Positions 16,172-41,540 of a stretch of DNA of 56,081 bases are shown here, piece by piece. This DNA is from Clostridia bacterium. Lineage in GTDB: Bacteria; Bacillota; Clostridia; Oscillospirales; Acutalibacteraceae. The stretch spans positions 1-56,081 of the forward strand of contig JAFTBJ010000118.1 of assembly GCA_017455295.1 (NCBI GenBank). The letters run 5' to 3'. Within the stretch, counting starts at the first letter, position 1. Each line of letters starts with the position of its first letter. Position numbers and translations under genes: made by a program. The notes under the pieces are model-generated. The model ran no database searches and was not told where the DNA came from. It was given only the letters and a program-made list of their open reading frames with translations.

Positions 16172-16188
16172 GAAAGGGGAGAGGAATC

Positions 16189-19565: not shown

Positions 19566-20981
19566 ATGACCGAAACCAGTCAAACAGTGGCAAGAACCGT
19601 ATCCCTGCCGGTTATTACCGAACGGGAAGCATTTGATATCCTCGTCGTCGGCGGCGGTACCGCCGGCGTGATCGCGGCAATCGCCGCGGCGGAAAGCGGC
19701 AAGCGGGTGCTGATCGTCGAGCGTAGCTATTCGCTCGGCGGGTCGGCTACCGGCGCGCAGGTGACGCCGCTGATGATGCTGCACGTCGACGGCGTGCACA
19801 ATTCCTCTGTCAGCATCCGGCTGCAAAAGCTGCTGGAAGAGCGCGGCTATACGTCGATGCCGGCATGGTGCGATAAGGGCATCAAAACGGAGTTCTCTCC
19901 CGTGATGCTGCGCCCGGCACTCGAAGAAATGTGCAAAGCCGCGGGCGTGACGTTGCTCTATGGCGCCGCCTTTGTGGATACGGTGCGCGAAGACGGCAAG
20001 ATCCAAAGCGTGCTGGTGCAGACGCTCGATGGTTTGGTGGAGATCGAAACCAAATTTGTGATCGATGCGACCGGCGATGCGCAGGTCGCGTATATGGCGG
20101 GCTGTCCGTTTGAGGCGGGTGACCCGCAAAACGATGGCGTCAACCAGGATATGTCGCTGCGGTTTGCGATCGGCGGCGTCGACTTTGAGGAACTGCACAA
20201 GACGGTGATCGAACTTGGCTGCGGCGACGTGATGGAGGACGGCAATCCGTTTTTCAGCCTGTCGAGCGTGTGGCATTCGCCGAACGCCCTGACGCCGCTC
20301 TTCCAAAAGGCGGTGGACGACGGGGTGCTGAGGCACGAAGACGGCGTCTACTTCCAAACCTTTGCCGCACCGTCTCTCGGCCCGAACGTGATGTATTGCA
20401 ACTGTCCCGAAGCGGTGTATGAACACGACGCGACCGACCCCTGGGCAGTGACGCGCGCGGTGGTGGCCTGCCGGGAATCCATCCTGCGGCTGCACACCTT
20501 CTTCAAGACGTATTTCCGCGGCTTTGACAACAGCTTTATTCTCTCCTTTGCGGAGATGCCCGGTATCCGGGAAAGCCGCCGCATCCTCGGGGAATATTAC
20601 TTGACCGAGAACGACTATAATGAGCGCAGCAAATTCCCTGACGGCATCGCGCAGACGGCCTATCCGATCGATGTGCACGCTGCCAAAGGCGTGGTTCATC
20701 CTCGGCCGATGCAGCAAGGCGAATATTTTGAAGTGCCGTATCGCTCGCTCGTGCCGAAGGGAATCGATAATCTGCTGGTGGCCGGACGTTGCACGTCGGC
20801 GTCGTTCGTCGCACAATCCGCCATTCGTGTGCAGCTCGTATGCCGCGCGATGGGCGAGGCAGCCGGTATCGCCGCGGCGATGGCGGTGGAGCAACAGCAA
20901 CCGGCGGCAGAAGTGGACGGTGCGGCCGTGCGCGCGGAAATGATTGCCCGCGGCGGCGTGTTCCTGGACGCCGATCGGTAA
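19566..20981 (+). CDS. FAD-dependent oxidoreductase (FAD_oxidored/GIDA-like Rossmann), cytoplasmic
   Basis: The dinucleotide-binding motif is DILVVGGGTAGVIAAIAAAESGKRVLIVERSYSLGG. A late motif is LVAGRCTSASFVAQSAIR. There is no signal peptide. Confidence 0.8.
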   Translation: MTETSQTVARTVSLPVITEREAFDILVVGGGTAGVIAAIAAAESGKRVLIVERSYSLGGSATGAQVTPLMMLHVDGVHNSSVSIRLQKLLEERGYTSMPAWCDKGIKTEFSPVMLRPALEEMCKAAGVTLLYGAAFVDTVREDGKIQSVLVQTLDGLVEIETKFVIDATGDAQVAYMAGCPFEAGDPQNDGVNQDMSLRFAIGGVDFEELHKTVIELGCGDVMEDGNPFFSLSSVWHSPNALTPLFQKAVDDGVLRHEDGVYFQTFAAPSLGPNVMYCNCPEAVYEHDATDPWAVTRAVVACRESILRLHTFFKTYFRGFDNSFILSFAEMPGIRESRRILGEYYLTENDYNERSKFPDGIAQTAYPIDVHAAKGVVHPRPMQQGEYFEVPYRSLVPKGIDNLLVAGRCTSASFVAQSAIRVQLVCRAMGEAAGIAAAMAVEQQQPAAEVDGAAVRAEMIARGGVFLDADR

Positions 20982-21054: not shown

Positions 21055-22848
21055 ATGAAAAAAACATGGTGGCGTATTCTGGCCATGGCGCTGGCAACGA
21101 TCATGATGATCGGGGCGCTGGCGGCTTGCGACGGCGGTTCGGAGGAACCGGCCGATCCGGATGCGCCGAAAACGGAAACGGGTACGGAAGCGGAGCTGAC
21201 GGCAGTTCGTGACGAACTGATCAAAGCGACCGAAACGAAAGACATCACCGAAGAAATCACGGCGATGGAGTTCTATGAGAACGGCGTCCGCACGACGAGC
21301 GACAAATATGTGCAGGCGAAGGACAACAAAAAAATGTACTACTTCGGCAACGTCAAGCGCGTTGTCAACTACACCGACGGCTATATCATCGATATGCCGC
21401 AGGATTGGAAACCGGATTATTCGCTGAGCAGCCTGCGCTGCCGCTATGTCTCGGACGACGTGACGATGATCGCGAGCAACGAGACGGAAGCGGCGAAACG
21501 CTATTCCGAGGGCTTCCAGCAGTATCTGGATACCGTGTATCTCTACCTCAAGAACGAGGACTTCCAGAAGAACAACAAGATCACCGTGATCGAAGCGGAA
21601 AAGAAAATGATCGTCGACGATGACTGGACGGCGGAAATCTATCGCGTCAAGCTGGAAGGCTGCAAAGAGGGCATGAAGTGCTACTACACCTATGTGGATT
21701 TCTACAACGAAGTCGGCAAGACGGTGCACATGATGTTTAAAGCGGTGGACGACCGCTCCTTTGAAGACGTGATCGGTTCCTTCAAGTACATCATCCTGAA
21801 GGGCGCGCCGATCGACACGCAGACCTATCCCTGCGAGCCCAGCGAGACCTGGAGCGCGGAAACCCTCGAGAAATACGAGACGATCTGCAGCCAGGATGTG
21901 GTCGACTGGGGCCTCTTTGCCAGCAAGCTGGAGACCACCGGCTGGGATATCACCATCCCGCAGATGGAAAAACGCATCGACTACAAATTCCCGGTCATCT
22001 CGCAGTATGTCCACTTCGGTTCGAAGGATAAGAACGTCGTCACTCCCGGCAAGTTCCCGACGGAATTTGCGAATAAGGTGGATGCAGACGGCCGTATGAT
22101 GCAGATCACCTATCAGTACACCATCAACAACAACATGGATATGACGGAAGTCAGCCCGATGCTCGACATCTATCGCGGCAAAGAGGATGCGCTGGAGACG
22201 TTGACCGACTTTGCAAAGGATGCCGCCGCTTATGGAAAACCCTTCTACTTCCGTCTCAACAACGAGATGAACACCGACTGGACCAGCTATTGCGGCCTTG
22301 CAAACATGCTGGATCCCGAGATCTTCCAGGATACCTGGGTGACGCTGTACGACATCTTCACCGAGACGGGCGCCAACCAGTATGCGATGTGGGTCTTCAA
22401 CGGCTTTGACGGCTCCTACCCGCCCTTCAACTGGTGCAACTATCGCTGCTATATGCCGGATGCGAAGTACATCCAGCTCATCGGTCTGACCGGCTACAAC
22501 GGCGACGCCAAGGAAGGCGAGGCAACCAACAACTGGCGCACCTTCCCGCAGATCTATGATGATATCTGCACCGGCGTGACGAAGAACTACAACGAGTACT
22601 TCTCCGAGTGGCCCTGGATCATCTCCGAGTTCGGCTGCGAAGGCCTGATCCCCGAAGATCGTGCCGAGTGGGTCACCGAGATGTTCCAGGCGATCGCCGA
22701 CGGCAACTATCCGAACATCAAAGTGGCGGTGTGGTTCAGCGCCAACGACTTTAATGCGGAGACCGGCGAGGTCACCAACAAGTTCACGCTTGACGGCGAC
22801 ACCGAGACGCTCAAAGCGTTCAAGGAAGGCCTTGCGCTGACGCAGTAA
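21055..22848 (+). CDS. lipoprotein with C-terminal clan GH-A (GH26-like) glycoside hydrolase domain, paralog 1
   Basis: AAGGAGG RBS precedes ATG 21055. Lipobox is GALAAC. FYFRLNNEMNTDW resembles the GH26 acid/base block (R-x-x-H-E-M-N-G). WPWIISEFGCEG resembles the nucleophile block. The N-terminal roughly 300 aa are unassigned. Confidence 0.55.
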   Translation: MKKTWWRILAMALATIMMIGALAACDGGSEEPADPDAPKTETGTEAELTAVRDELIKATETKDITEEITAMEFYENGVRTTSDKYVQAKDNKKMYYFGNVKRVVNYTDGYIIDMPQDWKPDYSLSSLRCRYVSDDVTMIASNETEAAKRYSEGFQQYLDTVYLYLKNEDFQKNNKITVIEAEKKMIVDDDWTAEIYRVKLEGCKEGMKCYYTYVDFYNEVGKTVHMMFKAVDDRSFEDVIGSFKYIILKGAPIDTQTYPCEPSETWSAETLEKYETICSQDVVDWGLFASKLETTGWDITIPQMEKRIDYKFPVISQYVHFGSKDKNVVTPGKFPTEFANKVDADGRMMQITYQYTINNNMDMTEVSPMLDIYRGKEDALETLTDFAKDAAAYGKPFYFRLNNEMNTDWTSYCGLANMLDPEIFQDTWVTLYDIFTETGANQYAMWVFNGFDGSYPPFNWCNYRCYMPDAKYIQLIGLTGYNGDAKEGEATNNWRTFPQIYDDICTGVTKNYNEYFSEWPWIISEFGCEGLIPEDRAEWVTEMFQAIADGNYPNIKVAVWFSANDFNAETGEVTNKFTLDGDTETLKAFKEGLALTQ

Positions 22849-23060: not shown

Positions 23061-24776
23061 ATGAAACGAATCATTCGCTTGCTGTCCTGTCTGCTTGTCC
23101 CGGTATTGCTGTGCGGGATGCTGTCCTCCTGCGCTACCGAGGGCGGCGGCGACACACCCGAACAGCCGCAAGACGAAGCCGCGCTGACCGCGGTTCGGGA
23201 ATCGCTGGTCAAAGCGACCGAAACCAAAGGATTCGGCGAGCTGACCGCGATGGAGCTGTATGAAAACGGCGTGCGCACAGCAAGCGACGAGTTCGTGCAG
23301 GTGCGGGACAACAAAAAGCTCTATTATGCGGGCGACGTCAAACGGGTGGTCAACTACCCGGACGGCTATATCCTCGATATGCCGGCCGATTGGGTGCCTG
23401 ACTATTCGATGTCGACCGTGCGCTGCCGGTATGTGAGTGATGATGTGACGCTGATTGCCACGGTGGAGGAAGAGGCCACTCGGCAATACGGCGGCGCACA
23501 GCCGTACATCGAGCAGGTTTTTCAATATATCACCGCCGACGAGTATCAAACGCTCAACCGTGTGAAGAAACTCAGCGAGGAAACCGTTTCACTGGATGAT
23601 GAGTTTCAAGCGTATGTGCTGAAAATGCAGATGCTCGAATGCGCCGCATCGGTCAAGAGTTATTATACCTACGTCGTGATCTACAACAACGTCAATCGTT
23701 GCGTACAGCTCATGTTCAAAGCGATCGACGACCGCGATTTCGCGTCGGTCTATCAAAGCTTCCGCACGATCGTCAAAAAAGGCGCCGCGATGGATACGGT
23801 GACCTATCCGCGGGAGGATAACCCGAGCTGGAGCGACGCGACCGCCGCCTATTATCACGAATTGACCGAGCGGGACAACATCACCTGGGGCGTGTTCTCC
23901 GGCAACCTCACCGAAACGAATACGATGCGCCTGCAGGTGCCGAACCTTGAGAAAAAACTCGACTTTACCTTCCCGCTCATCTCCTCCTATTCGGCGATGG
24001 GATGGGACTTCCCGCTGAAGGAAGCGCAGGCGCTGACCGAGGACGGTCGGCATTTGCAGTACACCTTCCACTATTCTTATTGGACGGGCGAAGCGGGGAT
24101 GGGGCGCAAAGCGCCGATTCTGGACGTCTATCGTGGCATGCACGACGCGGATCTTGAGAAGGTCGCCGAGGGGATCGTCGAATACGGCCAGCCAATGCTC
24201 TTTCGGCTGAACAACGAAATGAATTCCGACTGGACCGATTGGTCGGCACTCAACTGCATGCTCGACCCCGAGATCTTCACCGAAACGTGGATCCGGATGT
24301 ATCAAATCTTTGAAAAGGCCGGGGCCAATGCAAATTGCATTTGGATCTGGAATCCGCAGGCGGACTATGGGATCCCACGCGGCGCCAACTGGGCGGATAC
24401 CCGCACCTATATGCCAGGTGCTGACTATGTTGATATGATCGGCGTGACCTATTACAACTTCGGAACCGAGGACACCTGGGCCAGCTACGAATACCTGTAC
24501 GACTGGATCGACCGCTACTATTCCGCCTATTTCGGCGACTGGTCATGGATCATCTCGGAATTCGGCTGTTCCGATACGGCCGAGCCGTCCCGCAAAGCCC
24601 AGTGGATCAAAGAGATGTTCGATTGCATGGGCGAGGGGAAATACCCGAACATCAAAGCCGCCGTCTGGTTCAACCGCAACGACTATGAAAACGGCGAGAT
24701 CACCCACCGCCTTGTGTTGGAAGAAAGCAAAGAGATTTTGGACGCCTTCAAAGACGGCCTTAAACGTACACAGTGA
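23061..24776 (+). CDS. lipoprotein with C-terminal clan GH-A (GH26-like) glycoside hydrolase domain, paralog 2
   Basis: AAAGGAG RBS is present. Lipobox is GMLSSC. LFRLNNEMNSDW and WSWIISEFGC blocks are present. It is colinear with 21055-22848 throughout (ELTAVRE.L.KATETK, YENGVRT.SD.FVQ..DNKK.YY.G.VKRVVNY.DGYI.DMP). Confidence 0.55.
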   Translation: MKRIIRLLSCLLVPVLLCGMLSSCATEGGGDTPEQPQDEAALTAVRESLVKATETKGFGELTAMELYENGVRTASDEFVQVRDNKKLYYAGDVKRVVNYPDGYILDMPADWVPDYSMSTVRCRYVSDDVTLIATVEEEATRQYGGAQPYIEQVFQYITADEYQTLNRVKKLSEETVSLDDEFQAYVLKMQMLECAASVKSYYTYVVIYNNVNRCVQLMFKAIDDRDFASVYQSFRTIVKKGAAMDTVTYPREDNPSWSDATAAYYHELTERDNITWGVFSGNLTETNTMRLQVPNLEKKLDFTFPLISSYSAMGWDFPLKEAQALTEDGRHLQYTFHYSYWTGEAGMGRKAPILDVYRGMHDADLEKVAEGIVEYGQPMLFRLNNEMNSDWTDWSALNCMLDPEIFTETWIRMYQIFEKAGANANCIWIWNPQADYGIPRGANWADTRTYMPGADYVDMIGVTYYNFGTEDTWASYEYLYDWIDRYYSAYFGDWSWIISEFGCSDTAEPSRKAQWIKEMFDCMGEGKYPNIKAAVWFNRNDYENGEITHRLVLEESKEILDAFKDGLKRTQ

Positions 24777-24805
24777 CCGCCATTATTTTCTGGGAGGAAT
24801 TTGTT

Positions 24806-26329
24806 ATGAAACGTACCGAGCAACCGTTTGATATGGCCAAAACGCCGGCCGGCGTGGTGCCGCTGCCGTATGACAACCGGTTTTTGACCGATGGCCGTGA
24901 GATCGATCTTGTGGGCGATCCCGCCGTCGATCCGCTCAAGCCCGCCGAACTCGTTTATAAAAAGCGGGAAGGCGGCACCTACATCTATTCTAATAACCCG
25001 GAAATGCTGCGGGCGAAGGATCTCGGGCAGGCGCTGCTTCGCACCAAAGACCTGACCGGTGACGTCGAGTTTACCTATGAGCACAGCAATCACAGCGGCC
25101 AACCGGCCTATATCGGCTATCAGCTCAAAAACGAGGGCAAGGAAGACGCCGAGGTGCTGGTGACCAATATCGGCATCCAGGTGGACGGCGAATGGCTCGG
25201 CCAGCGCTCTTGGTCGGATTTTTACAACGTGAAATTCGATCTGCCGACCTACTATTTTGTGGATGGCAAGGAATATTTCGGCTATGTCGGACAGGATTTT
25301 CTCGACTACACGCCGCGCGTCTTCCAGCCGACGACTTATCGCATCCCGGCGGGCGAGTACATTTATGTGCTCGGCGGCACATCGGCGGACGCTTATGCCA
25401 ATACCAACGTTGGCGATACGGCGGACAAGGTGGTCGAAGTCGGCCGCTGTTCGAACGGCGCTGTCAAATTCCGCGTGCTGACCGGCAAAGTGACCGGTAC
25501 GGTCTATTTCTATGCCGATGCCGAGCAGGTCAAAGCCGAGCCCGCCGAGCAGGGCTATGTGGTCAACCGCGACGAGATTTTCTTCGGCGGACAATATAAA
25601 GGCGTCGACCCGCATCTCGGCATGATCGAAGCGGATATCAGCTGGACGGTCAACGATCGTACCATGTGCGGTACGCTGCCGGTGAGCTTTACAAATTATT
25701 ACGACGACCATATCGCCGAATACCCGAAAACGCCGTATATGGCTTATCAAAGCACCCCGCATCGGCAGCATCTCATTCGCTGGCTGACGTCGCTCAATCC
25801 GCAAAACGCCCACGAAGCGGTGGGAACCGATATGATGATCTTTCATTGTATCACAGAAGACGGCACCCCGGTCGTCATTGACAACGAACATGCCGACGGC
25901 GCGGGAGATCCGGCGAACACCGGAAACTGGATGGTGCAGTGCAACCACAATTTCACCCTTGTCAACCAAGGCGAGAAAGAACGTACCTTCCGGATCTATA
26001 CCGACGGAGCGCTCGCCGGTGCGCTGTTTGTGCTGGTGCGCAATGAAGCGGGCGATGTGCTGAATACCCGCTGCACCATCAGCCCGATCTGCTATCCCGT
26101 TAGCGAGCTGCCCAAAGACGCCGATCCGTCGCGCTATGAAAACGACAACGGCCTGTGCTTCCCGATCATGCCGGACGGCCGGTCGTATCGCTTGCATCGG
26201 CCGGAGGAAGCCTTGATGGCGACGGTGAAGGTCGCACCGCATAGCTATGAGCGGATCACGATCGATTTCAATATTCTCGGCAATTCCTGCGGCAGTGCTT
26301 GGCACTGGGTCACGTTGGATGAGGAATGA
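24806..26329 (+). CDS. uncharacterised conserved protein, unknown-family paralog 1 of 4 (no signal peptide, cytoplasmic form)
   Basis: GGGAGGA lies 7 nt before ATG 24806. It shares the blocks KREGGTYIY.NNPE, LTGD.EFT.EHSN, YQLKNEG, GEWLGQ.SWSD.YN, TPRVFQPTTYRIPAGEYIYVLGGTS, QYKG, HADG.G..AN.GNWM and LGNS.G with the next three genes. Confidence 0.75.
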   Translation: MKRTEQPFDMAKTPAGVVPLPYDNRFLTDGREIDLVGDPAVDPLKPAELVYKKREGGTYIYSNNPEMLRAKDLGQALLRTKDLTGDVEFTYEHSNHSGQPAYIGYQLKNEGKEDAEVLVTNIGIQVDGEWLGQRSWSDFYNVKFDLPTYYFVDGKEYFGYVGQDFLDYTPRVFQPTTYRIPAGEYIYVLGGTSADAYANTNVGDTADKVVEVGRCSNGAVKFRVLTGKVTGTVYFYADAEQVKAEPAEQGYVVNRDEIFFGGQYKGVDPHLGMIEADISWTVNDRTMCGTLPVSFTNYYDDHIAEYPKTPYMAYQSTPHRQHLIRWLTSLNPQNAHEAVGTDMMIFHCITEDGTPVVIDNEHADGAGDPANTGNWMVQCNHNFTLVNQGEKERTFRIYTDGALAGALFVLVRNEAGDVLNTRCTISPICYPVSELPKDADPSRYENDNGLCFPIMPDGRSYRLHRPEEALMATVKVAPHSYERITIDFNILGNSCGSAWHWVTLDEE

Positions 26330-26348
26330 AAGTGAAGGAGTATACACG

Positions 26349-28124
26349 ATGAATCAGCAGGCATCTTTGGCGCGAAAAGGCTTGGCGTATGTTCTGTCGT
26401 TGGCGGCGATCATGGCATTGTTTAGCGGCTGCAGCGACATCCATCGCCCCGCCGTATTTCAAAATGACGCCGGGGAGACGGTGGAGGGGGCCATTCCGCT
26501 GTCCGGGTTTGAGGATGTGACCGGCTTTGACAAAACCTGCACCTATGAGATGCGGGCGGACATCACCGACAGATACACCTTTACCTGCAGCAAAAAAACA
26601 GTCGCCATTGAAGTGACGACCGCGGATGGCACACCGCTGTCGGAAGGGGAAAACCCTGCTTCGGCATCATTGCAGGCCGGGGAGACCTATCGCATCAAAG
26701 CCACTTCGAAGGAATCAAATGAAAAAATCCATGTGGATGCCGAAGCGGATAACCACAAGGTGCGGCTGCCTTATCAAAACGTGTTTACGATTGACCCGGA
26801 GGAGCATCAGGAAAGCGATCCGGCGGTTGACCCGCTGAAGCCCGCTTCTATCTCCTATCAAAAGCGGGAGGGCGGCACCTATATTTATGCCAACAACCCC
26901 GAGAAGCTGGCGAACGAAGACGTCGGACAAGCGCTGATGCGCGATCGGAATTTGACTGGCAGCATCGAAGTCACCTGGGAGTATAGCAATGCGTCCAACA
27001 AGATGTTCTATCTTGGTTATCAACTCAAAAATGAGGGAAAGACGGACGTATTCGTCACGGTGACCAACATCGGCATACAGGTGCAGGGAGAATGGCTCGG
27101 CCAGCAATCCTGGTCGGATTATTATAATCTGCATTTTGATTTGCCGGACGATTATTTTGTCAAAAGCACCGTCGTCGCTGAACCGTATCGTGGGCAGGAC
27201 TTCATCCAATATACGCCGCGCGTGTTCCAGCCGACGACCTATCGCATCCCGGCAGGGGAGTACATTTATGTGCTCGGCGGCACGTCGGAGGACGCTTATA
27301 ACAGCACCAACGTCGCGGATACGGCAAACAAGATCATTCAGCGTGGCAAATGCACCAACGCTGTTGCCAAATTCCAAGTGACCGGCGGCGTGGTGACCGG
27401 CACCTTATATTGCTATGAAAACGCCGATCAGGTGACCGAGGAGCCGGAGGAACAGGGATATGTCTGCAAGCGGGGCGATACCGAATACGGCTTGCAGTAT
27501 AAAGGTATTGACCCATATGAAGGATTGATCGAAAGCAACATCACCTGGACGGTCAACGATCAAACAGAAGCGGGCTATCTGCCGGTAACCTATCCGGTAT
27601 CCTATTCGCCGACCGCCGCCCGGTATACAAAGCCTTATAAAGAATACAAGAATACGCAAACAGAGATCTTTTCCAAATCTTTTTGGATCACCAATATCAA
27701 TCCGCAAAGCAACCATTCCGCTGTCGGAACGGATATGTCCGCGTTTACCTGCCGCACCGTGGATGGTGAGGAGGTCACGATCGACACGTTCCATGCGGAC
27801 GGCACCGGCAACTCCGCCAACCTCGGGAACTGGATGATCGACTATCATGACAACTATACGATCTATAACGACGGCGACACCGAGCGGGAGTTCCTCTTCC
27901 GCAAATATGCGAACGGCGCCTTGATGGCGATGGTGCTTGACCCGGACGGGAAGGTGCTCGCCACGAAATGCACCATCCAGCCGCTGGAAGGCAGCAAAAC
28001 GGACGCGAACGTCCTGTTGTATACGCTCACGGTGCCCCCGCATTCCTATCGGCAGATCACAATCAGCTTTCTGCTGATGGGCAATTCTTCCGGAAACGTC
28101 GCTCACATGGTCGAACTTGTTTGA
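26349..28124 (+). CDS. uncharacterised conserved protein, unknown-family paralog 2 of 4 (lipoprotein form with PPC-like N-terminal beta-sandwich)
   Basis: GAAGGAG lies 8 nt before ATG 26349. Lipobox is ALFSGC. An extra roughly 130-aa domain reads YTFTCSKKTVAIEVTT...LQAGETYRIKATS, followed by the shared roughly 480-aa core. Confidence 0.75.
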   Translation: MNQQASLARKGLAYVLSLAAIMALFSGCSDIHRPAVFQNDAGETVEGAIPLSGFEDVTGFDKTCTYEMRADITDRYTFTCSKKTVAIEVTTADGTPLSEGENPASASLQAGETYRIKATSKESNEKIHVDAEADNHKVRLPYQNVFTIDPEEHQESDPAVDPLKPASISYQKREGGTYIYANNPEKLANEDVGQALMRDRNLTGSIEVTWEYSNASNKMFYLGYQLKNEGKTDVFVTVTNIGIQVQGEWLGQQSWSDYYNLHFDLPDDYFVKSTVVAEPYRGQDFIQYTPRVFQPTTYRIPAGEYIYVLGGTSEDAYNSTNVADTANKIIQRGKCTNAVAKFQVTGGVVTGTLYCYENADQVTEEPEEQGYVCKRGDTEYGLQYKGIDPYEGLIESNITWTVNDQTEAGYLPVTYPVSYSPTAARYTKPYKEYKNTQTEIFSKSFWITNINPQSNHSAVGTDMSAFTCRTVDGEEVTIDTFHADGTGNSANLGNWMIDYHDNYTIYNDGDTEREFLFRKYANGALMAMVLDPDGKVLATKCTIQPLEGSKTDANVLLYTLTVPPHSYRQITISFLLMGNSSGNVAHMVELV

Positions 28125-28149
28125 TGTTTTGCAAAAGAAAGGATGTTTT

Positions 28150-30093
28150 ATGATGAACCGACAGATACGCCAATCACTCTGTTTGATTTTGAGCCTGACG
28201 ACGATTCTGTTGCTGTTTTCCGGTTTTACGGGTTCTTCGTCTTTCAAGGTGACGCCGATTGGCGACGTCACCGGTGACGGCGGCGTCACATCTTCGGACG
28301 CGCGTTTGCTGATCTGCCATATCATCAAGAATACGGCGGGTACTCTCGACGCGCGGATTGCGGACTGCGATGAAAACGGAATGATCGACACGGCGGATGC
28401 TCGCGCGATTTTGAACCGTGCCATGCTGGAAACCCCGATCACGGCGGAGGGCTTGCCGCTCTCGTCCTATTCGGATATGACCGATGCGGACAGCGTGTCG
28501 GCATATGAGATGACCTGCGAATTGTCCGATACCTATAAGTTTTCGTGCGTGGCGGCCAAATCCATCCGCATCACCACGCTCAGCGGCAGCACGATCGCGA
28601 GCGGTGGAAGTACGATACAGGCGGATCTAACGGCGGGGAAGACGTATCACATCGCGATGCAGTCGCTCAAAGCCAATCAAAGCTTCACCATGAACGTGAC
28701 CGCTCAAAATCATGTGATTCGTCTGCCGTATGAAGCGCGCTTCACAAGCGATCCCGAAGATTATGAAACGACCGGCGTCTCGGGAAATCCGGTACAATCT
28801 GCCGAGATCGTGTATACCAAACGGGCGGGCGGCAAATATATTTATTCCAATAATCCCGAAAAACTGGCTTCGCAGGATATCGGACAGGCGCTGCTGCGCG
28901 ATGAGAATTTGACCGGCGACGTAGAGTTTACATGGGAACACAGCAACTTTTCCAAGCGATCCTTCTATCTCGGGTATCAGCTCAAAAACGACAGCGACCG
29001 GGATGCCTTCGTCACCGTGACCAATATCGGCATGCAGGTGCAGGGCGAATGGCTCGGTCAGAAAGCCTGGTCGGATTTCTACAACATCAAATTCGATCTG
29101 CCGGGCGACTATTTTGACGAAAACGGGCAGGAATCGGAACGGTATCAGGGGCAGGATTTTGTGGATTATACGCCGCGCGTGTTCCAGCCGACCACCTATC
29201 GCATCCCGGCGGGAGAGTATATTTATGTGCTCGGCGGCACATCGAACGATGCCTATAACAAAACCAATGTGGCAAATACTGCCGATAAAATAATCTATGC
29301 CGGCAAATGCACCAACGCCGTGGTCAAATTTCGCGTGTTCGGCAGCGCCGTCACCGGCACCTTGTATTGCTATACGAGCGCGTCGCAGGTGAAGGCGGAA
29401 CCGGCGGAACAGGGATATGTTGTGTCCCGTGCCAATTCGGACGGCGAACTGACCAACTACGGCGTGCAGTATAAAGGAAGCGCCGACCATCAGGGACTCA
29501 TCGAAACGAACATCGCCTGGACGGTCAACGACCAAACCAAAAGAGGCTATCTGCCGGTGACCTACAATTCCTACCACAGCAACACCAAGCCGGGCGATGG
29601 AGAACCCTATCGCTTGTTTGAAGGCACGGATCATCAGTTATCCATGGGCGGCTGGACAACGCACGCCAATCCGCAAAATCATTCGTATGCCATCGGCACC
29701 GATATGGTGGACTATGCTTGTGAAACGACCGACGGTACGCCGATCACCATTGATGTCAACCATGCGGACGGCACCGGTCGTGCCGCGAATCTCGGCAACT
29801 GGATGATCGATTATCAGGACAACTATACCTTTGTCAACCGGGGCAACACGGCGCGCACGATCACCATTCGCAAATATGCGGACGGCGCTTTGATGGCGAT
29901 GGTGCTGGATCGCGACGGCAATATCCTGTCGACCAAGTGTACCATTCAGCCGAGCCAAGGCAGTAAGACCGAATATAATTATGATATCTATGTGTTCACG
30001 TTGCAGCCTCATTCTGTGGAGCAGCTCACGGTGAATTTCATGCTGATGGGCAATTCAAGCGGGTCGGTCAGCAATGTTGTATGGATGGAATAA
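28150..30093 (+). CDS. uncharacterised conserved protein, unknown-family paralog 3 of 4 (signal peptide, N-terminal dockerin, PPC-like domain, core)
   Basis: The signal peptide is followed by GDVTGDGGVTSSDARLLICHII...DCDENGMIDTADARAILNRA. These are two EF-hand-like dockerin type I repeats (about 28258-28440). The shared core follows. Confidence 0.75.
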   Translation: MMNRQIRQSLCLILSLTTILLLFSGFTGSSSFKVTPIGDVTGDGGVTSSDARLLICHIIKNTAGTLDARIADCDENGMIDTADARAILNRAMLETPITAEGLPLSSYSDMTDADSVSAYEMTCELSDTYKFSCVAAKSIRITTLSGSTIASGGSTIQADLTAGKTYHIAMQSLKANQSFTMNVTAQNHVIRLPYEARFTSDPEDYETTGVSGNPVQSAEIVYTKRAGGKYIYSNNPEKLASQDIGQALLRDENLTGDVEFTWEHSNFSKRSFYLGYQLKNDSDRDAFVTVTNIGMQVQGEWLGQKAWSDFYNIKFDLPGDYFDENGQESERYQGQDFVDYTPRVFQPTTYRIPAGEYIYVLGGTSNDAYNKTNVANTADKIIYAGKCTNAVVKFRVFGSAVTGTLYCYTSASQVKAEPAEQGYVVSRANSDGELTNYGVQYKGSADHQGLIETNIAWTVNDQTKRGYLPVTYNSYHSNTKPGDGEPYRLFEGTDHQLSMGGWTTHANPQNHSYAIGTDMVDYACETTDGTPITIDVNHADGTGRAANLGNWMIDYQDNYTFVNRGNTARTITIRKYADGALMAMVLDRDGNILSTKCTIQPSQGSKTEYNYDIYVFTLQPHSVEQLTVNFMLMGNSSGSVSNVVWME

Positions 30094-30147
30094 GGGAAGA
30101 AAGACGCCTTTGACAACGTTACAAGCTCGCTTGAGAAAGGATGTTTT

Positions 30148-32100
30148 ATGATGAACTGCAGAATACGCCGATCTCTCGGTCTGCTTTTGAGCCTGACGAC
30201 GATCCTGCTGTTGTTTTCCGGCTTTACAAGTCCTTCGTCCGTCAAGGTGACGCCGATCGGTGACGTCACCGGTGACGGCGGCGTTACGTCGTCCGATGCG
30301 CGTGTGCTGATCCGGCGGATCGTGGAAGGCACATCCTTTGACGATGCGATGTGGGTATCCGATTGCGATGAAAACGGTCTTGTCGATACGACGGACGCCC
30401 GCGCTATTTTGACGCGTGCGATGCTGGAAACGCCGGTATCGGCGGCAGCGGAAGGCCTGCCGCTCTCGTCCTATTCGGACGTGACCGGTGCTAGCCGAAT
30501 GGCGGCATATGAGATGACCTGCGACTTGACCGATACCTATCTGTTTGAATGCGCCGCGGTGCAGGCGATCGAGATCATGACGCTCAGCGGCAATTCGATC
30601 GCCACCGGTCAGCTTTCTATGGAAGCGGCGCTCACAGCGGGCAAAACCTATCGCATCGAAGTCACCACCTTTTCTCCCAATCAAAGCTTCACGATGAACG
30701 TGACCGCCAAAAACCACGTCAAGCGTTTGCCGTATCAGGCGCACTTCACCTCCGATCCGGAGGATTACAGCACCACAAGCGCATCGTCTGCCAATCCGCT
30801 CCAGCGCGCCGAAGTCAACTATACCAAGCGCGAGGGTGGCACCTATATCTATGCCAACAACCCCGAGGTGCTGGCCAAACAGGACGTCGGTCAGGCGCTC
30901 TTACGGGATGAGGGACTCACCGGGGATGTGGAGTTCACCTGGGAGCACAGCAACCAGACCGGGCGTTCGATCTATCTCGGCTATCAGCTCAAAAACGAGG
31001 GGGACCGTGATGTATTCATCACCGTCACGAATGTCGGCATGCAGGTGCAGGGCGAGTGGCTCGGCCAACAGTCCTGGTCGGATTATTACAACATGAAGTT
31101 TGATCTGCCGCAGGATTATTTCAACGCCGACGGCAGCGTCGCGGAACCGTATGTGGGGCAGGATTTCATCGACTATACCCCGCGCGTGTTCCAGCCGACC
31201 ACCTATCGCCTTCCGGCCGGGCAGTACATCTATGTGGTCGGCGGCACGTCGAACGACGCATATAATAGAACGAATGTCGCGAACACGGCGAATAAGATGA
31301 TTTATGTCGGCAAATGCTCCAATGCCGTGGTGAAATTTCATGTGGCGGGCGGCAGCGTGACCGGCACCTTCTATTGCTACACCACCGCCTCGCAGGTGCA
31401 GGCAAATCCCGAGGAACAAGGCTATGTCGTGCTGCGAGAAAACACGTCGGGTGTCGAAACCAGCTACGGCGCGCAGTATAAAGGCAGCGCTTCGCATCAA
31501 GGCCTCATCGAAACCAACCTGGCATGGACTTTCAACGATAACACAACGAGCGGCAATCTGCCGGTGTCCTATACAAGCTACTATAACGACCGCTGGCACG
31601 CAGTGGGCGACGCCTATCGCGTGCTGCCCGGTGTGGATCACACGGTCAGCCGCAGCTATTGGACGACTCATATCAACCCGCAGGCAAACCATGTCGGCGT
31701 TGGTGTGGATATGGTGGAGTATGCGTGCGAAACGGTCACCGGCGATCCGGTGGTGATCGACGTCAACCATGCGGACGGCCGCGGCAAGGCGGCGAACCTC
31801 GGCAACTGGATGATCGACTATCAGGATAACTACACCTTTGTCAACCAGGGCAACCGCGATCGCGAGATCACCGTTCATAAAAGCGCGAACGGCGCGCTCA
31901 TGGCGTTCATTATGGATCGTGACGGCAACGTACTTGCTACCAAATGTACGATCCAGCAACTCAACGGCGGCAAATCGTCCTATAACTACGATATTTACAC
32001 GATGACCATTCCAGCCCATTCGGTCGTGCAGATCACGGCAAGCTTCCTCTTGATGGGCAACTCGAACGGCAATGTGACCAATTCGGTTTACTTGAAATAA
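30148..32100 (+). CDS. uncharacterised conserved protein, unknown-family paralog 4 of 4 (signal peptide, N-terminal dockerin, PPC-like domain, core)
   Basis: GDVTGDGGVTSSDARVLIRRIV...DCDENGLVDTTDARAILTRA dockerin (about 30259-30450). Same architecture as paralog 3. The leader GAAAGGATGTTTTATGATGAAC is identical to that of paralog 3. Confidence 0.75.
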   Translation: MMNCRIRRSLGLLLSLTTILLLFSGFTSPSSVKVTPIGDVTGDGGVTSSDARVLIRRIVEGTSFDDAMWVSDCDENGLVDTTDARAILTRAMLETPVSAAAEGLPLSSYSDVTGASRMAAYEMTCDLTDTYLFECAAVQAIEIMTLSGNSIATGQLSMEAALTAGKTYRIEVTTFSPNQSFTMNVTAKNHVKRLPYQAHFTSDPEDYSTTSASSANPLQRAEVNYTKREGGTYIYANNPEVLAKQDVGQALLRDEGLTGDVEFTWEHSNQTGRSIYLGYQLKNEGDRDVFITVTNVGMQVQGEWLGQQSWSDYYNMKFDLPQDYFNADGSVAEPYVGQDFIDYTPRVFQPTTYRLPAGQYIYVVGGTSNDAYNRTNVANTANKMIYVGKCSNAVVKFHVAGGSVTGTFYCYTTASQVQANPEEQGYVVLRENTSGVETSYGAQYKGSASHQGLIETNLAWTFNDNTTSGNLPVSYTSYYNDRWHAVGDAYRVLPGVDHTVSRSYWTTHINPQANHVGVGVDMVEYACETVTGDPVVIDVNHADGRGKAANLGNWMIDYQDNYTFVNQGNRDREITVHKSANGALMAFIMDRDGNVLATKCTIQQLNGGKSSYNYDIYTMTIPAHSVVQITASFLLMGNSNGNVTNSVYLK

Positions 32101-32112
32101 GGAGAGCGTTTT

Positions 32113-33987
32113 ATGAAAGTCTATTTGAAAAATGATTGCGAAGAGCTGCAAGCCGGTTTGCAGGCACTTGTCTGCTGCGGCATCGAAGAAGCGGATGAGA
32201 TGACGGCGGATGTCCTTGTCACCGCCGAAAAGCGGGAGGCGGGGCTTTCCGTGTCGTTTGACGGGAAAGAAGCGACGATCGGCTACAGCCGTCGGGTGGA
32301 ATTTTTCCGCGGTCTGTCGCATGTACTGGGCGCGTTTGCGGCGGGCAAGTCGACGGACGTTTCCGAAACGGCCGCCTTTTGCTCCAACGGCTTCATGCTC
32401 GATTGTTCCCGCAACGCTGCGCCGAAAGTGGAGACCATCTATGAGGTGCTGGCGCGTATGGCGTTGATGGGGCTCAACACTATGCAGCTCTATACGGAAG
32501 ACATGTACACTCTTGACGAGCGCCCCTATTTCGGTTATATGCGCGGGCGGTATACCGACGAGGAACTGAAAGCGGTGGACGATCGGGCGTATGCGCTCGG
32601 CATCGAGGTGATCCCCTGTATCCAGACGCTTGCGCATCTCGCGACCGTGTTGCGCTGGGACGCCTTTCGCCCGTTGGTCGACTGCAACGATATCATGATG
32701 GCGGGCGAGGACAGCACCTATGAATTTGTGACCGAGATGATTGCCAAAATGCGCCGCTGCTTTAGAAGCCGGCATATCAACATCGGCATGGACGAAGCGT
32801 TTATGATCGGCCTTGGTAACTATATGAAAAAGCACGGGCTTCGCCCGCGTACGGATATCATGTGTGAGCATATCGCCCGCGTACAGACCATCTGCGACAA
32901 ATACGATTTCAAACCGATGATGTGGAGCGATATGTTCTTCCATCTCGCACAGGGCGGTTATAACGAAGCGACTATCCCCGAGGAGGTCATCGAGAAGGTT
33001 CCCGAAGGCGTTTCGCTGGTTTATTGGGAGTATTACGTCACCGATCAGGAAACGTATGCCCGCGTGATGAGCCAGCACAAACAATTCCGCAATCCCATTG
33101 TGTTTGCGGGCTGTGCGTGGAAATGGAACGGCCTGTTGCCGGAGTTGAAGCACAGCCTGTCCGTCTCCCGCATGGCGCTGGCCGAATGTATCCACCACGA
33201 CATTCGCGACGTGTTTGCGACCGCGTGGGGGGACGATGGTGCGGAGTGCCCGCTCTTTGTGGTGCTGCCGGTGCTGCAGCTGTATGCAGAATTCGACTAT
33301 AGCGGTGGCGCCGTGACGGATGAACAGCTGCGCGAGCGATTTGCCGCCTGTACCGGCGGCAATCTGGAGGATTTCCTGCTGCTCGACAAACCCAATCGCA
33401 CCACAGAGAATCAACCGGCGATCGGTCTCAACCCGACCAAATATTTGCTCTATCAAGATATCCTGCAGGGACTTTTCGATCGCCATGTGGACGAGGAAAC
33501 CTTCCCCGCGTTCTTTGCCGGGGTGCGGGATGAGCTGCGAGCGGCCGGCGAGCGCAATCCGCAATATCGCTATTTGTTTGAATATGAAGCGGCGCTGTGC
33601 GATCTGCTCGCCGATAAATGCACAGCGGGCATCGCGATCCGCCGCGCCTATCTGGAAAACGACCGCGAGACCCTCGAACGCTATGCGACCGAATGGCTGC
33701 CGATGATCGACGAAGAGCTGCGCGGCTTTACCGATCTCTTCTATGACGGCTGGATGAGAGAAAACAAAGCATTCGGATTTGACACGATCGACCTGCGACT
33801 CGGCGGCCTGCACAACCGCCTCATCACCGCCGAAAAACGTCTCTTGGCGTATCTCAGCGGCGAGGTCGACCGCTTGGAAGAACTGGAAGAACCACGGTTG
33901 TTCTTTGATAATCGCGCAGATGATAAAGCGGATCCCAATACATTCTGCAACACCTGGACGCGCATCGCAACCGCGTCGGTCTTTTGA
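32113..33987 (+). CDS. GH20 family beta-N-acetylhexosaminidase, cytoplasmic
   Basis: Carries GFMLDCSRNAAP, LNTMQLYTEDMY, GRYTDEELKAVDDRAYALGIEVIPCIQTLAHL and HINIGMDEAF. The last block is the GH20 H-x-G-x-D-E catalytic pair. There is no signal peptide. Confidence 0.8.
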   Translation: MKVYLKNDCEELQAGLQALVCCGIEEADEMTADVLVTAEKREAGLSVSFDGKEATIGYSRRVEFFRGLSHVLGAFAAGKSTDVSETAAFCSNGFMLDCSRNAAPKVETIYEVLARMALMGLNTMQLYTEDMYTLDERPYFGYMRGRYTDEELKAVDDRAYALGIEVIPCIQTLAHLATVLRWDAFRPLVDCNDIMMAGEDSTYEFVTEMIAKMRRCFRSRHINIGMDEAFMIGLGNYMKKHGLRPRTDIMCEHIARVQTICDKYDFKPMMWSDMFFHLAQGGYNEATIPEEVIEKVPEGVSLVYWEYYVTDQETYARVMSQHKQFRNPIVFAGCAWKWNGLLPELKHSLSVSRMALAECIHHDIRDVFATAWGDDGAECPLFVVLPVLQLYAEFDYSGGAVTDEQLRERFAACTGGNLEDFLLLDKPNRTTENQPAIGLNPTKYLLYQDILQGLFDRHVDEETFPAFFAGVRDELRAAGERNPQYRYLFEYEAALCDLLADKCTAGIAIRRAYLENDRETLERYATEWLPMIDEELRGFTDLFYDGWMRENKAFGFDTIDLRLGGLHNRLITAEKRLLAYLSGEVDRLEELEEPRLFFDNRADDKADPNTFCNTWTRIATASVF

Positions 33988-36596: not shown

Positions 36597-37358
36597 GTGA
36601 GTCAAAAAGCATCCTATGAACAGGGGAGCGGCAGCCTCGTCAAGACCGCGGCCAAAGTGTTTGGCTATACCGTGATGGCCGCGGTGATGAGCCTCTTTTT
36701 GAGCTTTTCGATCAATATGCTGTCCGCCGGTCTTTTCACCGAAACGATCGGCTACAAAGAATATGAAAATGTAGACGGACAAGCGGTGCTGATCGATACC
36801 GTCTATTTTGAAGAAGGCGAGACGTACAGCAGTTCGCAGGTGGTCAACGACGATGATCGTTTGATTTCGCGGGAATTGATCACCCGGCCGAAAAATGACG
36901 TCTGTGCGGGACTGGCGGTGGCGGCGGAGATTCTCAAACAGCTGCTGATGCTGGCGCTGCTGCTGGGGCTTCCCGGCTATCTGCTTCATCGAGAGGGAGA
37001 CCGTGACCGCAATTTGGTGGATCATCACGATGAGGTGCCGCAGCCGCTCAAAGGGCTTTGGGCCGGCTCGCTGGCTTCTGTCCCGGCCGCGTGTGTTTAT
37101 GCACTGCTGGCGCTCGGAAAAGCCGGCGTTTGGTCAGATGCGGCGCAGGGGATTTATCGCTTTTTCAACACCCCATGGCTGCCGATCGTCAACGTGATTA
37201 TGCCGCAGGAAGTATACCCCGCGACGGCGGTCGAGGTGTGGCAGCTTTTGCTGCTTGCGCTGCTGTTGCTGCCGGTTCCGGCGGCGTGCGCGGCGGCGTA
37301 TGTCGTCGGCTATCGCCGCCTGATCCGCCCGAAGAAAAAGAAAAAGAAAAAAGCATAA
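36597..37358 (+). CDS. membrane protein of unknown function (about 4 TM) with poly-Lys tail
   Basis: GTG start with GGAGGG 6 nt upstream. Hydrophobic segments include YTVMAAVMSLFLSFSINMLSAGLF, LLMLALLLGLPGYLL, AACVYALLALG and LLLLALLLLPVPAACAAAYVVG. It ends PKKKKKKKA. Confidence 0.6.
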   Translation: MSQKASYEQGSGSLVKTAAKVFGYTVMAAVMSLFLSFSINMLSAGLFTETIGYKEYENVDGQAVLIDTVYFEEGETYSSSQVVNDDDRLISRELITRPKNDVCAGLAVAAEILKQLLMLALLLGLPGYLLHREGDRDRNLVDHHDEVPQPLKGLWAGSLASVPAACVYALLALGKAGVWSDAAQGIYRFFNTPWLPIVNVIMPQEVYPATAVEVWQLLLLALLLLPVPAACAAAYVVGYRRLIRPKKKKKKKA

Positions 37359-37362
37359 AAAA

Positions 37363-37404
37363 GAAAACGGTCTCCGATTTCCAATCGGAGACCGTTTTCT
37401 TTTT
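37363..37404. terminator. bidirectional rho-independent terminator
   Basis: Perfect 17-bp stem GAAAACGGTCTCCGATT / AATCGGAGACCGTTTTC (37363-79 / 37383-99) with a TCC loop. It is flanked by an A-run on the left and TTTTTG on the right. It lies between convergent genes. Confidence 0.85.
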
Positions 37405-39137: not shown

Positions 39138-40367
39138 TCACGCCGCCGTATTTTGGCGGGAAGCGGGGACTGCCTTCGCGCTTTCCAGCATGGTTTCGGC
39201 AAAAATCGCATACCCGCCAGTGGGATCGCCCACCAAAACGTGGGTCACCGCGCCGATCAATTTGCCGTTTTGGATGATGGGCGACCCGCTCATTCCTTGC
39301 ACAATGCCGCCGGTCTCGGCAAGCAGGGTCTCATCTGTGATGCGAATGACCATGTGGCGGGTGGGGGAATCGCCCCGCAGATCGACCTGCTCGACACAGA
39401 CGCGATATCGCTTAGGGGTGCTGCCGTGTATGGTGGTGATGAGTTCGGCGTCTCCTTCGACGATCTCCTGCTTGTGAGCGATCGGTATGGTGGCAAGGCT
39501 GGGCGGATCGTCGGTCAGCACGCCATAAAGCCCTGTATCGCCATTTGCGGTCAGCACGCCGTAACTGCCGGCGTCGAAACTGCCTTTGAGTTCGCCCGGC
39601 GCGCCCACCGCGCCCTTAGTGACGCCGAAGATGGAAGCCGGCACGATTTCGCCAGTTGCGATCGGCATCGTTTCGCCGGTATCCACGTCGCTGATCGGAT
39701 GGCCGAGCCCGGCGAATACACCGTTTTTGCCGGTGGTAAAGGTGAGGGTGCCGATCCCGGCCGAGCTGTCACGGATCCACATCCCCGCTTTGAGACGCTT
39801 TTCCGAAACGGATGCGAGCGCGGTCAGCTGCACATCGTATTCAATTTGCCCTCTGCGCATGTGCAGCGCCAGTGGGCGGGAAGCGCTGCTTTCGATCAAG
39901 GACGCGACCTCATCGGTCTGGGAGACTTCGGCGCCGTCAATCGAGAGGATCGTATCGCCGACCCGGATCCCGCACTTTCTGGCCGGGCTTTCTGCGCCGG
40001 TGCGGGCATCAACATCCGCAAGTCCTACCACGAGAACTCCGTCGGTGAACATCTTGATGCCAAAAGGGGTGCCGCAAACGGCAACACTGGTTTCTTTTTC
40101 TACATTCACCGAAACGGTTCCGACCGGGAAGATTCCGAAAAGACGGATTTCGGCTTCATAGTCGCTGCCGGCGCGCAGGGCCGCCGCCGTTGCCGCCTGA
40201 TCGCCGGATACGGCGGCGGAGAGCGCCGAAACGGGCAGCATCAAGCCTTCCCCTTCATTGACACGAAAGGATTCCGGCAGATATCGCTGCGCTACGAATA
40301 CACATAAAAACAATCCCGCACAAATCGGGATGAGTAAAATACTGAGGATTTGAAACAGCCATCGCAT
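39138..40367 (-). CDS. spoIVB: SpoIVB peptidase (S55 family sporulation signalling protease)
   Basis: It has an N-terminal TM and a PDZ-like part (GIRVGDTILSIDGAEV). The S55 domain has GIGTLTFTTGKNGVFAGLGHPISD and the catalytic-Ser block GMSGSPIIQNGKLIGAVTHV. The conserved spoIVB-then-spo0A order is present. Confidence 0.9.
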   Translation of the reverse strand: MRWLFQILSILLIPICAGLFLCVFVAQRYLPESFRVNEGEGLMLPVSALSAAVSGDQAATAAALRAGSDYEAEIRLFGIFPVGTVSVNVEKETSVAVCGTPFGIKMFTDGVLVVGLADVDARTGAESPARKCGIRVGDTILSIDGAEVSQTDEVASLIESSASRPLALHMRRGQIEYDVQLTALASVSEKRLKAGMWIRDSSAGIGTLTFTTGKNGVFAGLGHPISDVDTGETMPIATGEIVPASIFGVTKGAVGAPGELKGSFDAGSYGVLTANGDTGLYGVLTDDPPSLATIPIAHKQEIVEGDAELITTIHGSTPKRYRVCVEQVDLRGDSPTRHMVIRITDETLLAETGGIVQGMSGSPIIQNGKLIGAVTHVLVGDPTGGYAIFAETMLESAKAVPASRQNTAA

Positions 40368-40477
40368 AAGATCATGCCTCCTTTTGTTACGATCAGATGG
40401 GCGTCACTTTAGTGTGCCCGATACAAAAACAAATCTTACAAAAAGAGAGCTTTTTCAAAAAATTTACAACCCGCACG

Positions 40478-40506
40478 TTGCAATTTGTCGGCTTTTGCGG
40501 TAAGAT
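40478..40506 (+). promoter_or_regulatory. candidate sigma-A-type promoter
   Basis: TTGCAA (40478-83), a 17-nt spacer, then TAAGAT (40501-06), about 40 nt upstream of ATG 40545. Confidence 0.45.
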
Positions 40507-40544
40507 AGAGATACCGATGTACAATAAGCAGGGAGGAACACGCG

Positions 40545-40976: not shown

Positions 40977-40994
40977 AACAGGATATGGAATAAA

Positions 40995-41530: not shown

Positions 41531-41540
41531 CCGTCAGCAG

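Follow-up and report, generated by a model that had tools for sequence, protein, structure and literature searches.

Four tandem paralogs of an undescribed protein family in a glycan-utilization operon of a gut Clostridia bacterium: a candidate carbohydrate-active family of gut Oscillospirales

The stretch of DNA analyzed here, hereafter called the window, comprises positions 1 to 56,081 of contig JAFTBJ010000118.1 from a Clostridia bacterium of the Acutalibacteraceae (Oscillospirales; assembly GCA_017455295.1). It contains four consecutive genes on the + strand, designated W1 to W4, which share a core that we named family X. Their open reading frames (ORFs) are separated by only 19-54 bp. The four genes and the targeting and N-terminal modules assigned to their products are as follows:

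24806..26329 (+): W1 (copy 1), 507 amino acids (aa); core only, no signal peptide, long and ancestral C-terminal segment; from ORF and alignment
26349..28124 (+): W2 (copy 2), 591 aa; lipoprotein-type leader, N-terminal beta module of ~100 aa, core with a deletion of ~32 aa and the exchange H93Y
28150..30093 (+): W3 (copy 3), 647 aa; signal peptide, dockerin, N-terminal beta module, core
30148..32100 (+): W4 (copy 4), 650 aa; signal peptide, dockerin, N-terminal beta module, core; 68% identity to W3
26349..26432 (+): W2 signal peptide, lipobox-like LFSG-C with Cys28; read from the translation, pattern only
28261..28410 (+): W3 type I dockerin, residues 38-87; Pfam PF00404, E 1.9e-6, 28.4 bits versus a cut-off of 22.9
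30259..30402 (+): W4 type I dockerin, residues 38-85; Pfam PF00404, E 1.3e-6, 28.9 bits versus a cut-off of 22.9
W2 26481..26804, W3 28447-28749, W4 30454-30756 (+): N-terminal module of ~100 aa, conserved in seven proteins from five loci

A colinear core of ~470 aa runs through all four proteins, in which W2-W4 are 51-54% identical to W1 and ~190 columns of the MAFFT alignment are invariant. Pairwise identities range from 0.51 to 0.68, with W3 and W4 as the closest pair. ORFs and alignment thus confirm the four gene lengths and the shared core given in an original prediction, which had been made from the letters of this DNA alone, and nearly all motif blocks quoted there are found among the invariant columns. 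In a search of 5.8 billion proteins W2-W4 match W1 with E-values of 1e-137 to 1e-148, and therefore their likeness is far beyond chance. Synonymous sites are saturated among the four genes (dS, the synonymous divergence, is 1.1-1.5), and the ratio of nonsynonymous to synonymous divergence (dN/dS) is 0.22-0.34. W1-W4 are therefore old duplicates held by purifying selection, and neither recent copies nor pseudogenes. The long C-terminal segment of W1, formerly described as an extra insertion of this copy, is present in 54 of 85 family members, and the deletion of ~32 residues common to W2-W4 recurs in 28 further secreted relatives. Going by the alignment, the long form is ancestral and W2-W4 carry a deletion, which turns the earlier description around.

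The products of the four genes differ in their predicted location. A stop codon just upstream of the possible starts of W1 leaves no room for a signal peptide. W2 has a hydrophobic stretch at residues 12-28 that ends in ALFSGC and classifies it as a lipoprotein by pattern match alone, with Phe at lipobox position -3, where Leu is commoner. The hydrophobic leader of W3 and W4 ends in LFSGF (LLLFSGF) and is followed by a type I dockerin, in which the duplicated Ca2+-binding segment is visible as GDVTGDGGVTSSDA and DCDENGxxDTxDA and which scores above the Pfam gathering threshold. The targeting of each copy is thus as originally predicted. Moreover, the deployment of one core to cytoplasm, membrane surface and dockerin, as predicted from the leaders, has counterparts in other species, where pairs of differently targeted copies recur: signal-less X together with lipoprotein X in two loci (L009, L010), and lipoprotein X together with dockerin X in five (L066, L067, L069, L076, L080). 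Signal-less forms are W1, those of L009, L010, L015 and L016, and most of one of the two clades described below (clade B). The signal peptides end in LLLFSGF in the dockerin copies (28150-28240 and 30148-30240) versus ALFSGC in the lipoprotein copy (26349-26432). Because LLLFSGF takes the place of the ALFSGC of W2, the dockerin forms seem to descend from a lipoprotein that lost its lipobox Cys and acquired a dockerin. The additional N-terminal module of W2-W4 had been called a PPC-like beta-sandwich. A conserved module is indeed present, but it matches neither a Pfam family at E<=1, PF04151 (PPC) included, nor a PDB sequence at E<=10, so that "PPC-like" is a pattern impression only. A homolog search with this module returned fragments only.

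The core itself lies outside the described families, as had been suspected. For the core of W1-W4 there was no Pfam-A or NCBIfam match at E<=1 (in W3 and W4 only the dockerin passes the cut-off, and the other matches are at chance level) and no PHROG match at E<=0.01, and PDB sequence-profile searches gave chance matches only. Pfam-A and NCBIfam include most of the GH, PL, CE and CBM families of CAZy and most peptidase families. Judged by sequence, X is an undescribed family with respect to these curated model libraries. A word-indexed search of the 5.8 billion proteins found at least 358 cluster representatives matching X, all of which are named "hypothetical protein" and contain no Pfam domain besides the dockerin. 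As few as 279 matches at E<=1e-3 were obtained when 1.84 billion representatives were searched exhaustively with a profile, and X can therefore be regarded as a real but narrow family.

Conservation within this family is high. The residues N63-N64-P65-E66, E92, N95, N109, Y264, G266, D342, D364, N371, N374, W375 and N387 are invariant in 85 of 85 close relatives. Relatives of ~380-500 aa with ~25% identity are found in Acidobacteriota, Armatimonadota, Saccharibacteria and others. They keep the motifs NNPE, EHxN, YKG, a lone Asp, D..G..(P)N.GNW..Y, N.G...R and a C-terminal GG/GN-S-xG in this order. The set conserved across phyla includes four carboxylates (E66, E92, D342, D364), H93, Y264-K265 and R393 plus Asn/Trp-rich segments. 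All distant relatives are named "hypothetical" in their source records, and a metagenome scan gave nine loci only. Some distant relatives are fused to modules of the carbohydrate-binding module (CBM) type (NPCBM, Laminin_G_3), and one is fused to an S8 subtilase. A further match, the 7,945-aa protein P0201 with 53 matching stretches, was rejected as spurious, as it is a T/D-rich cadherin-like repeat protein.

A possible superfamily link leads to DUF3370 (PF11850), uncharacterized bacterial proteins of ~430-460 aa. Weak matches to this model were obtained for 16 of 50 distant relatives of ~400 aa (best E 5e-5), the weakest listed being far below the gathering score of 25 bits. X itself does not match DUF3370 even at E<=1 and thus does not reach this threshold. 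X and the relatives grazing DUF3370 share the motif order NNPE, EHxN, YKG, D, NLGNW, N.G..R, GG.S.GG. However, X is larger and has extra insertions as well as N-terminal targeting modules. DUF3370 has no function on record, and a literature search gave no paper mentioning it.

To describe the distribution of X, one genome per species of the GTDB was scanned, which gave 145 confirmed matches. The best 78 loci all belong to uncultured gut Clostridia (Acutalibacteraceae, Oscillospiraceae, "Eubacteriales") from ruminants, chicken, rabbit and human. W1 has its nearest relatives, with 73% and 67% identity, in metagenome-assembled genomes (MAGs) of Acutalibacteraceae and Eubacteriales. In a neighbor-joining tree of 81 full-length proteins X splits into two clades, and W1-W4 belong to clade A. 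In this clade, X lies directly after one to four tandem genes for proteins resembling glycoside hydrolase family 26 (GH26-like) in 12 of 25 loci, and in five loci these are preceded by an FAD oxidoreductase gene. The order FAD oxidoreductase, GH26-like, X recurs in L006, L012, L031, L033, L053 and L056. A gene for a GH20C-type hexosaminidase is located directly downstream of X in L010-L012 and also in L006-L008, and elsewhere a dockerin-X gene lies two genes from a dockerin-GH26 gene. Among the remote homologs with ~25% identity, two in other phyla lie in possible glycan operons (L091:4893-9058, which equals L113, and L109:536-8185). One of them overlaps the start of a GH38 alpha-mannosidase gene in Armatimonadota, and another follows a GH20 gene and a gene for a TonB-type outer-membrane protein (porin).

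The window itself has the same arrangement. W1-W4 sit within a long same-strand block of the glycan-utilization operon type, whose genes closest to W1-W4 are the following:

19566..20981 (+): FAD-dependent oxidoreductase (PF12831), upstream of the GH26-like genes; Pfam
21055..22848 (+): GH26-like lipoprotein a, N-terminal domain of ~330 aa plus GH26-like C-terminal domain; paralog of lipoprotein b, no Pfam match of its own
23061..24776 (+): GH26-like lipoprotein b, directly upstream of W1; Pfam GH26, 32.7 bits versus 20.2
32113..33987 (+): GH20C-type beta-N-acetylhexosaminidase, no signal peptide, 12 bp after W4; PF00728 and PF18088
34009..36584 (+): two SGNH/GDSL esterases, the first with dockerin; end of the same gene block

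The block starts with an AraC regulator, two solute-binding proteins (one of 1006 aa) and four permeases of the ATP-binding cassette (ABC) type, followed by a Yip1 membrane protein with NHL/TPR repeats, a DUF5696 protein and two unknown proteins. Then come the FAD oxidoreductase, the two GH26-like paralogs, W1-W4, the hexosaminidase and the two esterases, and a further gene (36597-37358) ends at a terminator hairpin. No convincing terminator was found on the + strand of the block before this strong hairpin at 37358-37404. The genes for Spo0A and SpoIVB lie past it, which indicates a spore-forming Firmicute as host. Scans of the window for Rfam families and tRNAs were empty. The closest PDB entry to GH26-like lipoprotein b is Lic26A of Clostridium thermocellum (CtLic26A) with E 2e-14, and its motifs NNEMN and SEFG align with the two catalytic Glu residues of this lichenase; this places lipoprotein b in the GH26 relationship. 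The lineage of these proteins, which is distantly GH26 with CtLic26A as closest relative, occurs in one to four tandem copies in related loci, and the ~330-aa N-terminal region of both lipoproteins is conserved but has no family match. The substrate of this divergent lineage is probably the key to the whole locus.

The surrounding system is of a known kind, a Gram-positive glycan-utilization operon with cellulosome-type targeting. Acutalibacteraceae relatives use dockerin enzymes on host mucin (Limousia mucinolysome, PMC12997984), and the closest relatives of W1-W4 come from Acutalibacteraceae MAGs. As in the cellulosome, amylosome and mucinolysome sets of Oscillospirales (PMC12997984), dockerin, lipoprotein and cytoplasmic paralogs are combined in one glycan operon. 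The difference is that the module deployed here appears to lie outside the known families of glycoside hydrolases (GH), polysaccharide lyases (PL), carbohydrate esterases (CE) and CBMs. A glycan setting is seen in the window, with its GH26-like proteins, GH20C hexosaminidase, SGNH esterases and ABC importers, but the genes of the sister clade, half of the family, have quite another context, which the original prediction did not cover.

In this clade B, a protein of ~184 aa with one N-terminal transmembrane helix (TM184) is encoded directly upstream of X in 36 of the 78 loci. It has a conserved C-terminal domain (...YD.DGMI.YSSEYNK...RWY.AYA; e.g., L017:9327-9908 and L040:9247-9795) and no Pfam or PHROG match. 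In 22 of the 78 loci, TM184 and X end a compact same-strand module flanked by host genes, in the order gp3-like small terminase, large terminase, portal, major head protein, virion structural protein and coiled-coil protein. This podovirus-like head module of ~10 kb lies between host genes (hemW-like and c18) in 22 Oscillospirales species, among others in L017, L018, L022, L025, L041 (1-11419), L043, L047, L051, L058, L060-L064 and L083. Its parts include a 180-aa protein, the major head protein of 273 aa, a 127-aa protein, the virion structural protein of 570 aa (phrog_3287) and the coiled-coil protein of 380 aa, and no tail-tube, replication or integrase genes are in view. The module looks domesticated or defective, similar to a gene transfer agent (GTA) or a capsid island. 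A related, genuine phage contig of 39 kb (L101) has, unlike the modules, tail-fibre/hydrolase and internal-virion-protein genes beside its homolog of the 570-aa protein, and it contains no X homolog. Most X proteins of clade B have no signal peptide, but close orthologs are lipoproteins. In many clade-B loci genes for surface proteins (Big_2/GLUG, F5/8C-DUF4855, esterase) are inserted between module and X. A tblastn search of 50,697 phage genomes gave no match to X, and a scan of IMG/VR gave one contig that carries X. The window contains no homolog of the head module or of TM184.

The structure of W1 was modelled with AlphaFold2 from a 74-sequence alignment, with a mean predicted local distance difference test (pLDDT) value of 93.6 and a predicted TM-score (pTM) of 0.92. 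The model is nearly all beta, with ~29 strands, several of them 14-22 residues long. The minimal relative P0277 (389 aa) was modelled with a pLDDT of 95.5. In the models, long strands carry alternating conserved polar residues (T90/E92, Q106/K108, N121/Q125). In Foldseek searches of the PDB, the best matches of both models are botulinum HA70/HA3 (domain 3), the enterotoxin of Clostridium perfringens (CPE) and the collagen-binding domains of ColG, and further weak neighbors are CUB-domain proteins and the SIDT1 ectodomain. E-values are 2.6e-6 to 1e-4 and the HA70 probability is 0.94-0.99, at TM-scores of 0.13-0.25, root mean square deviations of 16-20 Å and sequence identities of 5-11%. A search of the BFVD gave equally weak matches to tail fibres and minor tail proteins. 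With either model no catalytic fold was matched in the PDB, and nothing with a convincing superposition. According to the models the fold class of X is a multi-lobed all-beta sandwich, the nearest known examples of which are ligand-binding domains. The modelling and fold search that had been suggested as a check of the original prediction therefore gave confident all-beta models, but no enzyme fold and only weak binding-domain neighbors. Two other structural relations were rejected: one to double-jelly-roll capsid proteins, as the matches to PR772 P3 and the GC1 capsid have probabilities of 0.18-0.30, and one to multicopper oxidases, with probabilities of 0.2-0.4 and no His-rich copper motifs.

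HA70/HA3, CPE and ColG resemble X in being multi-beta-sandwich proteins of clostridial origin. However, they bind ligands without catalysis, have no sequence-profile link to X and apparently lack, as far as we can tell, its conserved polar motifs. Domain 3 of HA70/HA3 binds sialyl-glycans. A second comparison can be drawn with jelly-roll glycanases and lyases of the GH16, GH11/12 and PL7 type and with PNGase F, a two-jelly-roll amidase with an interdomain active site. These are likewise all-beta with long curved strands that bear alternating polar or charged residues, and X shares with the jelly-roll glycanases the operon partnership with other glycanases. They differ in that none of them matches X in sequence or appears among the top 50 Foldseek matches, and the catalytic signatures of the ExDxxE type are absent from X.

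Because X goes to three locations and adjoins GH26-like glycanases, we regard it as a promising candidate for a carbohydrate-active family not known before. What we infer about catalysis, substrate and the roles of individual residues builds on the family, targeting, conservation, neighbors and fold class found above. We tentatively favor, as quite possible though far from assured, that X is a new family of glycan-cleaving enzymes (hydrolases or lyases) that works with the upstream GH26-like endoglycanases. The lipoprotein W2 and the dockerin proteins W3 and W4 would attack a beta-glycan containing N-acetylhexosamine (HexNAc) at the cell surface and on a cohesin scaffold, the fragments would be imported through the ABC systems of the operon, and the signal-less W1 would finish them inside the cell together with the cytoplasmic GH20C hexosaminidase. 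The modelled core is two-lobed, all-beta and ~350-480 aa in size. Its putative active site would be built from E66 (of NNPE), E92-H93-x-N95, Y264-K265, D342 and R393, as suggested by conservation, and the loop D364-G-x-G-x-x-x-N371-x-G-N374-W375 probably holds a structural Ca2+.

Several observations argue for an enzyme. At ~25% identity, the conservation of carboxylates, His, Tyr-Lys and Arg exceeds what a module that only binds would usually show. Many members of the family have no signal peptide, and a lectin in the cytoplasm is hard to explain. X adjoins enzymes, with GH26-like genes upstream in the 12 of 25 clade-A loci and GH20C downstream in several, and the remote homologs adjoin GH38, and GH20 plus porin. 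The fusion of distant relatives to CBM-type modules is the usual architecture of catalytic domains, and the modelled strands alternate conserved polar residues as in jelly-roll glycanases. With respect to the substrate, the combination of GH26-like proteins, GH20 and SGNH esterases may be a better match for a host or microbial glycan that is acetylated and bears HexNAc than for plain plant beta-glucan, and the mucin use of dockerin enzymes in relatives (PMC12997984) might, by analogy, bear on it as well.

Other findings weigh against this assignment. No likeness of X to an enzyme fold was found, and its best Foldseek neighbors are non-catalytic binding domains. Asn and Asp make up most of the residues that are invariant throughout, and this would also fit a Ca2+- or sugar-binding site. 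The linkage to GH26-like genes is found in about half of clade A and in none of clade B. Outside the close relatives, the two glycan contexts (GH38; GH20 plus porin) give no statistical support, as the remaining contexts of distant relatives are unrelated. Of the "new enzyme family" of the original prediction, the position outside described families has held up in the libraries searched, but its enzyme nature is less certain, since the only structural neighbors are weak matches to non-catalytic binding beta-sandwiches.

If X is catalytic, it would represent a new CAZy family, possibly with a new catalytic fold, and a handle on the substrate of the divergent GH26 lineage. The gut Oscillospirales are an abundant group, most of it uncultured and with poor annotation. 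A protein that is conserved, repeatedly duplicated, located between GH26-like and GH20 genes and exported with a dockerin marks a missing step in the breakdown of some glycan, which annotation of carbohydrate-active enzymes (CAZymes) of the dbCAN type would probably overlook. A more far-reaching form of the enzyme reading, which we hold to be unlikely, is that X is a new class of carbohydrate-active enzymes. Its catalytic unit would be built like HA70/CPE as a two-lobed beta-sandwich, for which binding is the only function known to date, and would have an interdomain Glu/Asp/His/Tyr-Lys site. This class would be the obligate partner of the divergent GH26 lineage in gut Oscillospirales, and the sister clade would act as envelope-glycan depolymerase of a domesticated podovirus-like particle. 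If this were true, one chemistry would have two uses, to feed on a bacterial or host glycan that contains HexNAc and to penetrate it.

The main rival, somewhat unlikely but deserving serious weight, is the explanation that X is a non-catalytic, probably Ca2+-dependent glycan binder, which captures substrate at the membrane and on the scaffold for the GH26-like enzymes. By analogy, X would then correspond in Gram-positive bacteria to surface glycan-binding proteins, or else to the binding proteins that amylosomes carry on dockerins. All structural neighbors are binding beta-sandwiches (HA70/HA3 domain 3, CPE, ColG, CUB), with HA70 reaching the high Foldseek probability given above. However, TM-scores this low do not justify a claim of homology to the toxin domains. 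Likewise, the invariant residues are rich in Asn and Asp and the D-G-x-G-x-x-x-N-x-G-N-W loop resembles a Ca2+ site, but the conservation across phyla takes in Glu, His, Tyr-Lys and Arg besides these putative metal ligands. Lipoprotein and dockerin forms are expected of substrate-capture proteins, whereas signal-less forms are frequent and include W1 within a catabolic operon. It also speaks against a binder that distant relatives bear CBM-like modules of their own.

An origin from, or a present role as, a virion-associated protein of phage or GTA type is improbable. X would in this case be a receptor-binding protein, envelope depolymerase or lysin of a domesticated podovirus-like element, and W1-W4 would have been recruited from it for nutrition. 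In the 22 species X is the last same-strand gene after those for small terminase, large terminase, portal, head, virion structural and coiled-coil proteins, and most of these X proteins have no signal peptide, like virion or lysis proteins, but close orthologs switch between lipoprotein and signal-less forms and surface-protein genes are inserted between module and X in many loci. The tail fibres and minor tail proteins found in the BFVD are weak neighbors, and they stand against the missing PHROG match, the 50,697 phage genomes without X and the single IMG/VR contig. The related genuine phage has other genes around its virion structural protein gene and no X homolog, and the window is free of phage-module and TM184 homologs. 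The adjacency may reflect either function or inherited synteny among related species. Irrespective of this, the compact head module of phage type beside the sister clade suggests that these bacteria harbor a domesticated element not described so far.

Least probable of all, X could belong to another enzyme class acting on glycoconjugates, such as a glycoprotein-specific peptidase or amidase with PNGase F as precedent, for which one could cite that the residues conserved across phyla are drawn from both the N- and the C-terminal half of the core, that GH20 and GH38 neighbors fit N-glycan trimming, that Acutalibacteraceae dockerin enzymes act on host mucin (PMC12997984), and that the subtilase fusion and a "predicted aspartyl protease" name exist among distant relatives, but no peptidase or amidase model or structure was matched, PNGase F being outside the top 50, the fusion is a single case, and the name is confined to short fragments. 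This name comes from the JGI and is attached to fragments of 47-48 aa (P0193) that fall into a 90% identity cluster with a distant relative.

Some further features of the locus were observed. Long antisense ORFs of up to 970 aa overlap W1-W4 and the GH20C gene on the - strand (24683-26347, 27405-28442, 28627-29634 and 30901-33813) and are by-products of the G+C-rich coding strand. With naive calling of the longest ORF, such an antisense ORF displaced the true X gene in 23 related loci, and X genes in related loci were called from tblastn coordinates. The unusual transport block at 4517-17202 comprises the two solute-binding proteins, of which the 1006-aa one has an N-terminal extension of ~600 aa, two ABC permease pairs, the Yip1-domain membrane protein, which is 698 aa long and contains NHL and TPR repeats, and, with E 7e-150, a full-length DUF5696 protein. 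A literature search on DUF5696, DUF3370, DUF4855 and PF12831 gave nothing useful. Over ~8 kb of the window (40001-48000) the G+C content falls from ~0.56 to 0.41-0.47. This stretch, which may be an island gained by horizontal transfer, contains an ABC ATPase gene and encodes a 741-aa protein with WD40-like repeats. At 1088-3229, a short way upstream of the AraC regulator, a Bac_transf sugar transferase and a phosphodiester glycosidase of the NAGPA type are encoded, which probably belong to a separate surface-polysaccharide locus.

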